From Eledone cirrhosa (lineage: Eukaryota), in NCBI GenBank assembly GCA_964016885.1, contig OZ024740.1:262260001-262324000 (forward strand): a stretch of 64,000 nucleotides of DNA. Reading direction: 5' to 3'. Below are positions 153-60,531 of the stretch, one piece after another. The translations under genes were made by a program, and so were the position numbers. Under the pieces are notes generated by a model. It was not told where the DNA came from and ran no database searches. It saw only the letters and a program-made list of their open reading frames with translations. How positions within the stretch are numbered: position 1 is the stretch's first letter; every line of letters begins with the position of its first letter.

Positions 153-550
153 TGGAGAATACATATCAATTAAAAGAATAAATTAAAATGTACTAACCAT
201 CCGATAGTAACTATAAGCATGTTTCACCACAAATAAAGAGTAGATTCATACCGTGGAAGGCTGATCAACACGTGGATCAGCAGGTTCCCAGCTGCTGTTT
301 TTAGCGGTCTTTTGGTGCATTCACACCACCATGGACTGTATAGCGCGCATGTTTTCTCTTTCCACCATGCATGTATAATAGTTATCTGATATATTTTTAG
401 AAGTGTGGATCGTATTGTTGGTCCACCTGTTGATAAGCCCTCCACGGTATGAATCTACACTTTACTTGTGGTGAAACATGTCCAGATGTTATAGGTATTA
501 TCAGATGGTTTGTACATTTCAATTTATTTTTTAATTGATCTGTTTTCTCC
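153..550. repeat. Imperfect inverted repeat (~140 bp arms, ~153-292 and ~415-550), PLE pseudo-LTR-like
   Basis: catgtttcaccacaaataaagagtagattcataccgtgga is the near reverse complement of tccacggtatgaatctacactttacttgtggtgaaacatg; similarity extends on both sides. Confidence 0.85.
424..488 (+). ncRNA. Type I hammerhead ribozyme, U3-A8 core variant
   Basis: cacctg-TTGATAA(430-436)-gcc...ggt-GAAA(473-476)-CATG-TC-cagatg; stem I ctg/cag, palindromic stem III. Confidence 0.65.
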
Positions 551-569
551 TTTTCTTCGTAGATTGAAC

Positions 570-809
570 ACATACCGTCTATCGGACCGATTCACCAAAC
601 AATTTATGGTCATACGACTAGGTAAAAACACTCCTGTCACTCGTACTTCCGTTCCCCCACCCTCTCTACTCACTGTCTCAGGATTCACTGTCTCAGAGCT
701 CATTTTACACCAAGGATCCAGAGCTACTCGTATCAGGACCGAGCAGAACTTAATTTTCCGCTTTGTAACCTCATTTCCGTATGGACTCAATCCCACCCAG
801 ATCCTTTAA
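570..809 (+). pseudogene. Penelope-like element GIY-YIG C-terminal remnant
   Basis: TYRLSDRF...RIRTEQNLIFRFVTSFPYGLN resembles the PLE endonuclease end (R..E..LI....T..P.GLN). Confidence 0.55.
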
Positions 810-1567
810 CCTTCCTTTACCCTTGCTCTTACACACAAACACACGCACATATACACACACACACACAACTGCAGCCACCACACAATACACACACACATTT
901 ACAACATCTGTTTATATATACCACTCCACACACATCTTCTGCACACATCTAACCATCAATCCTACACTTTCGGATGTGTGCACATATATGTGCACTTGCC
1001 CACACACACATTCCTGTTCTCATGTCCATGTGTGCTTCTTTCTCTTGCACGCTCGTCTGTTTTTGTGTGGCACACGGTGCCGCGGCATTGGCGTCGTCGG
1101 TGGTGAATGATTCCTAACAGTTACTCCGTCCTCACCACTACCTGGCTCTATCCACGCGTTTAATGACCTAACACCTCTACGGTTGTACCTCTATCGTCGT
1201 ATGCCAGTCTATGCAGCTTCTCTTACAACCATACCAGGCAATGAGATATACTGGCCATTACTATTTTCACTTACCTCTCTTTTCGACATAGACATTCGTA
1301 TACATTCTTATACACCATCTTACGTCGGTCAGCAGCCAGCTTGTCACGGTTCAAGGCTTCTCCTTCAAACGTAAGAACACACCTTCACGCGCACACACAC
1401 ACATACACACACACATATACACACATATACACACACACAGCTTTCTTCCTACCCATTCCACTAGCTTGAGCTCGTTGGATGGTTTAATATATATAGGGTA
1501 AGAAGTGCACACATATCTACAATCATACAAAACGTGTGTATATGTTATTATATTAATTGTTAGGCAC

Positions 1568-1662
1568 AACCTCGGCGGGATTTGAACTCAGATCGTAAAG
1601 GGACGTAACTATGCTGGAAACATGGCGTCCGACCTTCCACCGATACTGCCAATCCACCGCCC
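1568..1662 (-). mobile_element. tRNA-derived SINE family A, partial
   Basis: Reverse complement of ggcggtggattggcagtatcgg...gagttcaaatcccgccgagg (A and B box-like motifs). Confidence 0.85.
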
Positions 1663-1677
1663 ATGTTATTATATTAA

Positions 1678-2073
1678 TGGCAGTATCGGTAGAGGGTCTG
1701 ACGCCATGCTTTGCAGCAAAGAGTTACAGCTCCTTGCCATTCTGAGTTCAAATCCCGCCGAGGTTAACTTTACCTTTCATCCTTACGGGGTCGATAAAAT
1801 AAAGTATCAGAAATACACTGGTATAATTGCTGGCCTTGTGCCCAAAGTAGAAATAATTTTTATATTAAGGGCGGCAGATTGTCAGTATCGGTAGAGCGTC
1901 GGTCAACATGCTTTGCGGCATAGAGTTACGGCCCAGTACGTTGTGAGATCATATGCCTTTCATCTTTACAGGGTCGATAAAGTAAAGTTCCAGTAATGCA
2001 CAGGAGTCGATTCAATCGACTTTCCCCTCCCTCAAAATGATTGGCATTCTGCCTAAATCAGAAAGCTTTATTA
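1678..2073 (+). mobile_element. Two adjacent SINE family A copies (1678-1857, 1869-2073)
   Basis: tggcagtatcggtagag head, gagttcaaatcc B box, cctttcatccttacggggtcgataaaataaagta central domain, ggccttgtgcc tail. Confidence 0.85.
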
Positions 2074-2229
2074 TATTAAGTTCAATGTTATGTATATTTC
2101 CAAAATTTCTTGAGTTGAAATTCTATCAGATTTAATATTTTTGCATAAATCTTTTCTTTCGGCTTTCTGAAACTATATTTTCTTAATTCAGCCTAACATT
2201 TCAAATATATGGAAACACTTTGGTATGCT

Positions 2230-57738: not shown

Positions 57739-57966
57739 AATAAACGCAATGAAGACATAACAAATTGTCCTTTTTATTATTATGATTATTATAATAATTA
57801 CACTCTACTTAGTTCTACACCTCTTTACCGACTGGAAACTACGCATCGAGGGCTCACTGTGGTGAACGTACTGTAACTAGATGTTACATTCCCTATATAT
57901 ATATATATATATATATATAAATAGAGAGAGAGAGAGAGAGAGAGAGAGAGAGAGAGAGAGAGAGAT

Positions 57967-58440
57967 ACGGCACTTACTTAAATGTATGTTCGGTGCGCCT
58001 GGCCGACTGAACTCACTCGATATGCAAATTAGGCTGCTCAGACTTTAATTTTCATGAGGAAAGTATATACTTTCGAACGTTCAACCATCTGGCAGAAGGG
58101 TATACGGTGCTGATGATAGCTAAGAAGCTTGAAACTAGTACATCGTTCCTCTGTCAGTGTTGAACAAAAAGGTGACGTGGTTGCCTTAACACCGTTCGGC
58201 ATAAATTCAGGCTGTTCGTTTGTTTACGAACGGACAAAGCGGGCGTTGAAATAAACGTCCGCTAAACTAATACGTACATATATGTATGTGTACCTGTATG
58301 TATATATATATATATATATATATATATATATATATATATATATATATATATATATATATATATATATATATATATATATGCATGCTACTGTACGTCTGTA
58401 TACATATATGTATGTACGTATACATACATACTTACATTTA
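57967..58440 (+). mobile_element. Second copy of the 470-bp HHR unit, with a short inverted leader
   Basis: Reverse complement of ~37707-38116; the first ~20 bp (acggcacttacttaaatgta) are in the opposite orientation. Confidence 0.8.
58091..58155 (+). ncRNA. Type I hammerhead ribozyme
   Basis: ggcagaagggtat-acggtg-CTGATGA-tagct aaga agctt-GAAA-CTAG-TA-catcgt-tcctctgtc; predicted cut after 58140. Confidence 0.8.
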
Positions 58441-58455
58441 TATATATATATATAT

Positions 58456-58881
58456 ATAAAATATTAAAAAAATAATGAATAAAACAATGAAACAGTTCCT
58501 TATATTAAACAAAAAAAGTTCATTATTTAACGATCGTTTCTAGGATATATATGTGTTAGAATTGGCATGCATATTCAACAGATCTATGTACAAAATTATA
58601 CAAAATTATACAAACTATCAGAATTAAATATACATACCAAACACATATATATGCCGTCTTCAGAAATAAATTTCTGAAGACGGCATATATATGTGTTTGG
58701 TATGTATATTTAATTCTGATAGTTTGTATAATTTTGTATAATTTTGTACATAGATCTGTTGAATATGCATGCCAATTCTAACACATATATATCCTAGAAA
58801 CGATCGTTAAATAATGAACTTTTTTTGTTTAATATAAGGAACTGTTTCATTGTTTTATTCATTATTTTTTAAATATTTTAT
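58456..58881. repeat. Near-perfect ~212 bp fold-back palindrome with 2-nt loop
   Basis: Centre cagaaat-aa-atttctg at 58661-58676. Confidence 0.95.
58670..58812 (+). ncRNA. Hammerhead ribozyme motif with long stem II (mirror copy on the minus strand in the left arm)
   Basis: attt-CTGAAGA-cggcatatatatgtgtt...aacacatatatatccta-GAAA-CGATCG-TT-aaat; base of stem II imperfect. Confidence 0.6.
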
Positions 58882-59015
58882 CTTGACTCTGTATTCCGTT
58901 TATCTTTCACCGAAAGTAATTTTTCATTGCATCTCTTCTTTCCATGATATCCGGATTACATTGAGTTCTTCATACGGATTGGACACTACCGTAAACTCTT
59001 GGTAGATTTATCTAC

Positions 59016-60255
59016 ATATATATATATATATATATATATATATATATATATATATATATATATATATATATATATATATATATATATATATATATATATT
59101 TGTATATATAAATGTATATATATATATATGTATATATATATATATATGTATATATATTTATGTATATATATGTATATATATATATATGTATATATATGTA
59201 TATATATATATGTATATATGTATGTATATATATATGTATGTATATATATGTATGTATATATATGTATGTATGTATATATATGTATGGATATATATGTATA
59301 TATATATATGTATATATGTGTATATATATATATATGTGTATATATATATGTATATATATATGTATATATATATGTATATATATATGTATATATATATGTA
59401 TATATGTATGTATATATGTATGTATATATGTATATATGTATGTATATATGTATATATGTATATATATATGTATATATATATATCTATATATATATGTATA
59501 TATATATATGTATAAATATATATATATATATGTATATATATGTATATATATATATATGTATATATATGTATATATATATATGTATATATGTATGTATATA
59601 TATATATGTATATATGTATGTATATATATATATGTATGTATGTATATATATGTATGTATATATATGTATGCATGTATATATATATATATGTATGTATATA
59701 TATATATGTATGTATATATATGTATATTTATATATGTATGTATATATATGTATGTATGTATATATATATATGTATGTATATATATATATGTATGTATATA
59801 TATGTATATATGTATATATATATATCTATGTATATATGTATGTATATATATATATATGTAGGTATATACATATATGTATGTATATGTGTATATATGTATG
59901 TATATGTATATATATGTATGTATATGTATATATATATATGTATATATATATATATGTATATATATGTATATGTATATATATATATATATATATATATATA
60001 TATATATATATATATATATATATATATATATATATATATATATGTATATATATATATATGTATATATATATATATATATGTATATATATATATATATATA
60101 TATATGTATATATATATATATATGTATATATATATATATATATACATATATATATATATATATATGTGTATATATATGTGTATATGTGTATATATATATA
60201 TATATATATATATATATATATATATATATATATATATATATATATATATATATAT
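59016..60255. repeat. ~1.2 kb interrupted (TA)n/(TATG)n microsatellite
   Basis: Directly visible; source of the spurious 419-aa YI-rich ORF. Confidence 0.98.
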
Positions 60256-60316
60256 TAGAATGTGAGGTTCTTTTTACAAAATGAAAAATAACCGAGGTGT
60301 CCTACACAAGTGAAAG

Positions 60317-60531
60317 TATAAAGAAAAAGAGATGAAATCGAAAATGCAACTGAAGTCTTATTTTTTTTTTAAATATATAAATTTATATCGTTCCTTTACA
60401 GGTTTCGCAGTTCTTCTGCTTTTCAAAAGCAGAAGCACTGCGAAACCTGTAAAGGAACCAAATATATTTATATATTTAAAAAAGAAATAAGACTTCAGTT
60501 GCATTTTCGATTTCATCTCTTTTTCTTTATA
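60317..60531. repeat. Fold-back inverted repeat (~105 bp arms) centred at 60424
   Basis: ctgctttt-C-aaaagcag centre; 60250-60429 is homologous, inverted, to 28733-28910. Confidence 0.9.
60394..60429 (-). ncRNA. Minimal hammerhead ribozyme, U3-A8 core
   Basis: Minus strand: ctt-TTGAAAA-gcag aagaa ctgc-GAAA-cctg-TA-aag. Confidence 0.65.

Follow-up and report, generated by a model that had tools for sequence, protein, structure and literature searches.

U3-A8 hammerhead motifs as inherited family states of Penelope-like elements and short non-coding repeats in Eledone cirrhosa

The window analyzed here, a stretch of 64,000 nucleotides of the E. cirrhosa assembly GCA_964016885.1 (contig OZ024740.1), contains hammerhead motifs in several repeat families (Table 1). 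The initial annotation had reported six heptamers with a U3-A8 core, and all six were found at the positions and on the strands given. They belong to four families, all with U3-A8 as the inherited state. Three of these (A, B and D) are non-coding repeats with short monomers, whereas C forms the terminal repeat (pLTR) of a Penelope-like element (PLE). Other cores in the window comprise one with C3-A8, one with U3-C8, and seven intact and three decayed with C3-G8.

Table 1. Hammerhead cores and the repeats that carry them, in window coordinates.
Feature	Position	Strand	Description
Family A non-coding repeat	53..563	+	Monomer about 510-530 bp; inverted 5' arm at about 1-282
Core of inverted family A arm	262..268	-	U3-C8, apparently a one-off change
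Family A core	430..436	+	U3-A8, decayed copy
Canonical core, another family	28051..28057	+	C3-G8; second copy 28537-28543
Family C pLTR	28696..28918	+	5'-truncated 3' end of a GIY-YIG-coding PLE; TA run at end
Family C core	28736..28742	+	U3-A8; stems I and II of 3 and 4 bp, stem III palindromic (dimer predicted to be required)
Family C' PLE, broken	31627..34341	+	RT remains and GIY-YIG frame 33324-33983; inverted arm 31627-32226 with hammerhead 3' half
Family B retrozyme-like insertion	34728..35469	+	Inverted arm 34728-34899, then ~1.8 head-to-tail 317-bp monomers, between TA runs
Family B core 1	34976..34982	+	U3-A8, intact
Family B core 2	35293..35299	+	U3-A8, intact, 317 bp after core 1
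Family H pLTR	38342..38721	-	C3-A8 subfamily copy, 5'-truncated; not noticed in the initial annotation
Family H core	38450..38456	-	C3-A8 mismatch, G7
Family D non-coding repeat	55027..55638	-	Monomer about 480-490 bp, 1.3 units
Family D core	55178..55184	-	U3-A8, decayed copy (GGAA; stems II and III broken)
Family C copy	60232..60531	-	Truncation and inversion at the core; arm 60416-60531 inverted
Family C core	60420..60426	-	U3-A8, at the joint of the inversion; a long hairpin is predicted to trap it
Further intact cores	18494(-), 31244(+), 37990(-), 41159(+), 58110(+)		C3-G8

The window and shuffled versions of it were scanned with a hammerhead descriptor that accepts any base at positions 3 and 8. 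It recovered five of the six sites, compared with 0.2 U-A matches expected per shuffled window. The family D site was too decayed for the descriptor, and 19 further copies of this family align with it, forming stems I and II and a palindromic stem III. Intact copies of families A, B, C, D and H have the type I core (N3-U-G-A-N-N8-A ... G-A-A-A ... U-H) and all three stems. Among the Rfam matches listed, only the two B sites appeared, at 33.4 and 31.1 bits for HH9, below the gathering score of 52. Three of the six sites are damaged copies: site 430 has lost 16 nt of stem III and carries G11.1>U, site 55178 is broken as listed, and site 60420 is predicted to fold into one long hairpin. Minimum-energy folds of several copies differ from the hammerhead fold.

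We considered whether the heptamers are chance occurrences in AT-rich DNA or products of assembly error, given that, of the N-TGA-N-N-A classes in the window, T-A has the most sites (67). This reading is refuted by the structured matches, by the presence of thousands of exact copies (reversed controls gave zero) and by covariation. In nine B-superfamily copies, hand-picked and mutually related, double changes occurred in 10 of 13 pairs and 95.5% of cells were paired, as against 18-43% in slid controls; the 3-8 pair was U-A in seven copies and C-G in two. The hammerhead assignment is supported.

U3-A8 is the state of each family as a whole. With positions 3 and 8 open, it was found in 19/19 copies of family A, in 48 of 53 copies of D, the other five forming a small U3-G8 group, and, among the matches listed, in 95/100 for B (2,117 copies) and 99/100 for C (5,518 copies). 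The six sites are therefore four inherited family states rather than six events. Representatives of A, B, C and D gave no mutual blastn match at E<=1e-3, so the families are unrelated at the DNA level. Thus, the sites, the motifs and the unrelatedness of the families held up. Within A to D single changes are rare. However, the claim that both positions change together every time is wrong, as family H amplified C3-A8 to at least 1,181 copies and U3-C8 also occurs in the window. The accompanying argument, that independent neutral decay would rarely produce the double change, loses its basis because copies take their core state from a master element.

Family B consists of tandem non-coding monomers with a period of 316-317 bp, in arrays of six, each with one type I hammerhead; tandems of A and D are partial only. 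B shares 76% and 63% identity with two C3-G8 families. A 347-nt contig from a sequencing run of uncertain kind rejoins its own start after 317 nt, as a collapsed tandem would also do. No open reading frame could be tied to A, B or D. A link of B to the PLE frame upstream of it in the window was rejected, with B behind none of 29 other loci of that frame and the C' motif behind 27, at a distance of 0.7-1.25 kb. An apparent C3-A8 subfamily in B2 was also discarded, since U-A was present in 28 of 30 copies. By eye only, we noticed a possible 8-bp pseudoknot in family A, a candidate tertiary contact between stems I and II.

The organization of an endonuclease-containing (EN+) PLE, with one frame encoding RT plus GIY-YIG at its C-terminus between pLTRs, was found in C', in H (with weak or no Pfam support) and, by one EN fragment, in C. 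C' is a young family of 6,030 copies with 784-codon open frames. In C, the evidence is a single locus (L071), where the repeat is continuous with a GIY-YIG C-terminus of 72 residues 1.3 kb upstream; a putative full-length copy at C1:47.28 Mb proved to be two separate short insertions without a frame. One copy of H reads hammerhead, 786-codon open frame, hammerhead. The complete H protein had no Pfam match, a part of it matched only RVT_1 (E=0.1), and a PDB sequence search gave no match, while Atlas look-alikes carry HTH_animal, GIY-YIG and RVT_1. Only two loci, L176 (one frameshift) and L071, bear on intact frames in the C3-A8 subfamilies and family C. On the basis of a zinc-finger motif, C and C' may be Neptune-like. 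Partial tandems, inverted 5'-truncated arms and microsatellite targets, all expected of PLEs, were observed. The anatomy described for PLEs in the accessible text of 10.1101/2021.04.23.441226 is likewise seen here in the tandem units, the inverted 5' arms and the ends in TA runs.

In a PLE protein tree with long branches and three rows less than half filled, the U-A rows did not form one clade (p-AU 0.0009). U-A cores occur in at least 11 families, spread over at least two deep PLE lineages plus the tandem monomers, and in several of these families stem II carries a long insert and stem III is of monomer size. Of the hammerhead copies in an unbiased 1.2 Mb sample, ~20% were U-A and ~70% C-G. 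U3-A8 accounted for 10/75 descriptor matches and 32/162 complete cores by homology, the latter totals leaving out F23, a misaligned row of F17 and three profiles that were mis-registered. Thus U3-A8 is common in this genome, as proposed. The suggestion of a large uncounted population is likewise borne out: scans fixed on C3-G8 would miss tens of thousands of copies, from roughly 25,000 intact-looking ones (descriptor) to 80,000 (homology, including decayed copies). The main state was C-G or U-A in all 26 families of the sample, whose discovery needed a near-complete core. A C3-C8 'family' returned by the descriptor was removed as antisense matches in a PLE coding region, and an A3-G8 cluster (33 matches) was dropped, by judgement alone, as similarly false. 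A G3-C8 candidate has nine matches, of which the eight besides the candidate itself are partial.

The initial annotation had attributed U3-A8 to AT-biased mutation acting genome-wide, with selection for cleavage retaining only the double change. Both steps from C3-G8 are indeed AT-ward transitions, and such transitions (U-G or C-A) make up 9 of the 12 departures in copies of C-G families, showing that the supply is biased. At least two origins of U-A and the U3-G8 group in D also fit. However, we found no link between the U-A state and AT-richness of families (GC 0.380 in U-A compared with 0.373 in C-G families, p=0.45), stems adjacent to the core tend to be GC-richer in U-A families (0.57 vs 0.45, p=0.07), and the most AT-rich common families (F3 and F14) retain C-G. 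Moreover, H fixed the reverse change, U to C, and tolerated a single change for long. AT bias is therefore improbable as the driver.

About a quarter of family H lacks a Watson-Crick 3-8 pair. In the H tree, computed without seven truncated long-branch copies present in a first version, the C3-A8 copies lie between older and younger U-A subfamilies. They form two successive subfamilies, in which the second stem II pair is also broken; the family then returned to U-A, and its youngest subfamily has a repaired stem II. Family C' combines U3-A8 with C at position 13 (98/100 among the matches listed), so that the hammerhead consensus failed at this position. We consider it somewhat more probable than its converse that these copies record a PLE lineage passing from U3-A8 through an unpaired C3-A8 stage, over at least two subfamily generations and more than 1,000 copies, and regaining U3-A8, and that C13 marks a second, young family that is spreading.

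One possibility is a register shift, in which C3 of H would pair with G7, giving an active non-consensus hammerhead that lacks N7 and has an additional A in front of stem II. Among 100 listed H copies spanning the change, C3 with G7 occurred in 51, U3 with A7 in 43, U3 with G7 in five and C3 with A7 in one, and PLE hammerheads usually have one more base between 9 and 10.1 (PMC4209133, accessible part). But the C3-G7 association comes from a single branch and would be accounted for just as well by hitch-hiking, and G7 was kept after U3 came back. Loss of N7 is not known to be tolerated in hammerheads. The shift is thus quite doubtful.

Alternatively, cleavage may be dispensable or only weakly wanted. 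U3-A8 would then be a step of decay that drifted to fixation in master elements, and C3-A8 and C13 cores would be dead or nearly so, carried along or mobilized in trans by elements whose ribozymes work. The amplification of the two stem II-damaged H subfamilies and of the young, open-framed C' family agrees with this, as do, within the accessible text of each source, the success of Naiad PLEs without hammerheads (10.1101/2021.04.23.441226) and the poor in vitro cleavage by minimal PLE hammerheads (PMC4209133). Against it are the return of H to U-A with repair of stem II, the restriction of the sampled families to C-G or U-A as main state, with the discovery bias mentioned, and the strong stem covariation in the B superfamily. 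On balance we regard dispensable cleavage as rather unlikely.

We favor with some confidence the explanation that these are type I hammerheads with an inherited U3-A8 pair, in PLE terminal repeats and in non-coding repeats (A, B and D) that are likely PLE-derived, and that they probably cut transcribed element RNA to unit length. In place of the C3-G8 tertiary pair, U-A serves as a Watson-Crick equivalent, which arose more than once in these PLE lineages and was then multiplied from masters to thousands of copies; mobilization of A, B and D would be PLE-driven. Families with palindromic stem III (C and D) are predicted to cleave as dimers, while those with a full stem III (A and H) could cleave as monomers. 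Only master elements would be exposed to selection, when they transpose. This selection appears real, in view of the covariation of the stems and of the 3-8 pair among related families, but lenient, given the long-lived C3-A8 stage of H and the spread of C' with C13. The amplification of such consensus-breaking cores speaks against this explanation, as do the non-hammerhead minimum-energy folds of several copies. If they still cut, possibly through the C3-G7 shift, the hammerhead consensus is widened; if they do not, PLE mobility needs little cleavage. The mismatched family H would thus allow a test of whether these elements need the cut, and the H and C' subfamilies form an ordered natural series for setting cleavage rate against amplification success.

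How do these motifs compare with known systems? In the accessible text of each source cited here, C3-G8 covarying to U3-A8 is reported in several natural examples, active in vitro but called rare, and C3-A8 and C13 are absent (Perreault et al. 2011, PMC3088659), while what the hammerhead does in EN+ PLEs is described as unclear (10.1101/2021.04.23.441226). A search for C3-A8, C13 or subfamily-level core change returned nothing relevant in the searchable literature, some key papers lying outside it. The head-to-tail monomers of B, with one hammerhead each, resemble animal non-LTR retrozymes (Cervera & de la Pena 2020, PMC7229834; Li et al. 10.64898/2026.07.22.740005), as do A and D, which are longer (about 480-530 bp vs roughly 300 bp); the U3-A8 core differs. 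The closest likeness is to the Cercyon PLEs of Schistosoma mansoni (Cervera & De la Pena 2014, PMC4209133), with type I motifs in pLTRs, U3-A8 covariation, a short palindromic helix III and more than 1,000 copies in the genome, most of which are single and truncated or paired on opposite strands. About 1,300 U3-A8 matches stand there beside about 2,000 canonical ones, contradicting the earlier view of U3-A8 as uncommon. E. cirrhosa differs in the number and depth of the lineages involved, in the long stem II inserts and monomer-size stem III of several families, and in its amplified C3-A8 and C13 cores, which the accessible part of that paper does not describe. Thus, abundant U3-A8 in PLEs is already published and our census confirms and extends it; what is added is two amplified non-consensus cores.

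The six heptamers with a U3-A8 hammerhead core lie where the initial annotation had placed them, as checked against the window sequence; three of the copies (430, 55178 and 60420) are damaged. A structural descriptor that left positions 3 and 8 unspecified recovered eight structured motifs from the window; three have C-G and five U-A, against 0.2 U-A matches per shuffled window. The site at 55178 (-) fails the descriptor; other copies of its family form all three stems. Family profiles also identified three decayed C3-G8 cores and the intact and variant cores listed in the table.

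Hammerhead cores, element remnants and repeats in the window
Feature	Position	Strand	Basis or remark
Intact C3-G8 core	18494	-	family profiles
Intact C3-G8 core	28051		family profiles
Intact C3-G8 core	28537		family profiles
Intact C3-G8 core	31244		family profiles
Intact C3-G8 core	37990	-	family profiles
Intact C3-G8 core	41159		family profiles
Intact C3-G8 core	58110		family profiles
U3-C8 core	262-268	-	family profiles
C3-A8 core	38450-38456	-	family profiles; the window's copy of family H
Broken RT/GIY-YIG element	32328-34341		family C'
GC-rich tandem repeat	23512-23946		172 bp, 2.5 copies
GC-rich tandem repeat	27117-27466		69 bp, 5 copies; upstream of the cores at 28051 and 28537
Short insertion	34445-34580		resembles a tRNA-derived SINE head (by eye); between C' ORF and B insertion
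ACC-rich array	44649-54103		58-bp unit, 162 copies, 9.4 kb

The four families carrying these sites (A, B, C and D) occur as dispersed repeats in the surrounding 3.0-Gb genome, have inverted 5' arms and end in TA runs; as first noted, they show no DNA similarity to one another. A (about 510-530 bp), B (tandem, 316-317 bp, arrays of six) and D (about 480-490 bp) are short monomers to which no ORF could be tied when sought. C is the pLTR of a Penelope-like element (PLE); at one locus the repeat is continuous with a GIY-YIG C-terminus lying upstream of it. The related PLE family C' (75% alike) has many near-identical 784-codon open frames; at 27 loci the motif follows the ORF at a distance of 0.7-1.25 kb. 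A full copy of the PLE family H (L351) consists of a hammerhead, a 786-codon open frame and a second hammerhead; Pfam missed its protein; similar proteins in the Atlas contain HTH_animal, GIY-YIG and RVT_1. As judged by eye, family A (window 390-480, L031-L060) may form a pseudoknot between loop II and a complementary segment of 8 nt that precedes stem I. In a very young PLE family (G000, L261-L290; 38,776 candidates), tandems of 4.1 kb contain numerous, almost identical open frames of 1,217 codons, and a minimal C3-G8 hammerhead follows the ORF at about 230 bp.

States at positions 3 and 8 were counted with exact patterns open at both positions; reversed control patterns gave zero matches. 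Family A was U-A in 19/19. Among 100 matches listed for B (2,117 copies), 95 were U-A, 3 G-A, 1 A-A and 1 C-A, and among 100 listed for C (5,518 copies), 99 were U-A and 1 G-A. D was U-A in 48/53 and U-G in 5/53. These counts make U3-A8 the master state in each family. Single changes are rare in these four families. The U3-G8 copies of D at L353-L357 and L105 have diagnostic bases in common, which points to a small wobble-pair subfamily. Of 13 pairs compared across nine B-superfamily copies picked by hand, 10 showed double changes; the 3-8 pair was U-A in seven copies and C-G in two, indicating that the switch arose inside a homologous group keeping its structure; shuffle counts here are not probabilities, because the rows are related.

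The claim that positions 3 and 8 always change together is contradicted by family H, which amplified C3-A8: the exact form with G7 occurs 1,181 times in the genome. Among 100 listed of 5,032 pattern matches, 79 were U-A, 19 C-A and 2 U-G. An H pLTR tree was built from 34 rows with positions 3, 7 and 8 masked and seven truncated copies omitted. In it, the C3-A8 copies fall into two successive subfamilies, placed between the youngest U-A groups and a U3/A7 group; grouping of the other rows together was rejected (p-AU 9e-41). A distant U-A copy joins the root close to the U3/A7 group, its branch long and its position unsure. In the youngest group (within-group divergence 0.03) the second stem II pair is restored as well. 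C3 goes with G7 (among 100 listed, 51 C3/G7, 43 U3/A7, 5 U3/G7 and 1 C3/A7), a link that counts as one event and is compatible with hitch-hiking as well as with a shifted C3-G7 pair. Upstream of one C3-A8 copy lies an H ORF (87-90% identity) with one frameshift. In contigs of two other organisms (X3, X6) that span position 3 of the H copy in the window, none of the rows listed has U3, a weak hint that they share the C3 stage. H copies are mostly truncated inside the ribozyme (48/55 in 1.2 Mb, L111-L230), many in loop II, with only the 3' half kept. In C', 98 of 100 listed matches (6,030 in all) carry C at position 13.

U3-A8 proved common in the genome, as had been proposed. In 120 evenly spaced 10-kb stretches (1.2 Mb), a relaxed descriptor gave 75 matches (47 C-G, 10 U-A, 18 others; 9.2 expected from shuffles). 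Profiles blind to 3 and 8 gave 162 complete cores once F23, one misaligned row and three profiles in the wrong register had been excluded: 114 C-G, 32 U-A (including 9 from C'), 7 U-G, 6 C-A and 3 other. The sample contained 26 families, nine of which were U-A. Genome-wide, we estimate about 25,000 (12,000-46,000) descriptor-intact and 80,000 (55,000-113,000) homologous U-A copies, both intervals being too narrow as copies are clustered. A tree built on the C-termini of 18 ORFs does not unite the U-A and C-A rows in a single clade (p-AU 0.0009; long branches, three short rows); the 3-8 pair changed three times in it, two of these changes being forced by starred branches. A single hammerhead-like motif with G3-C8 at L119:4030-4130 (-) is related to the C-G family F7 and has eight partial relatives.

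AT-biased mutation, invoked initially as possibly favouring U3-A8, is not supported as the driver. Departures in C-G copies are mostly AT-ward (9/12), so a biased supply is plausible, but this says nothing on which families switched. GC around the core is no different between the two kinds (0.380 in 10 U-A families, 0.373 in 25 C-G families; p=0.45), while in the stems next to the core GC tends to be higher in the U-A families (p=0.07). In neither comparison are the families independent.

In the model of PMC4209133, tandem units are read through, cut and copied. Here, cleavage following H17 of every repeat would release unit-length RNA from the transcripts, and PLE proteins would copy this RNA into TA runs. 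Selection would act on masters alone, so that thousands of identical cores would represent few events. PMC3884650 and PMC3088659 describe a Watson-Crick 3-8 pair as part of the active fold and report an active U-A core, respectively. Stem covariation and the reversion of H to a paired 3-8 state speak for selection, and the amplification of C3-A8 and C13 cores speaks for a lenient one.

The U3-A8 feature is real and largely known, high-copy U3-A8 in PLE hammerheads being already published (PMC4209133). Beside it, the sequences point to one notable variant. In the part of the literature that could be searched, neither C3-A8 nor C13 is described as an amplified core, and passages of PMC6765202 and PMC7151607 added nothing on these variants. 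Penelope-like elements and non-LTR retrozymes have the same anatomy as the families described here (PMC4209133, PMC7229834, 10.64898/2026.07.22.740005).
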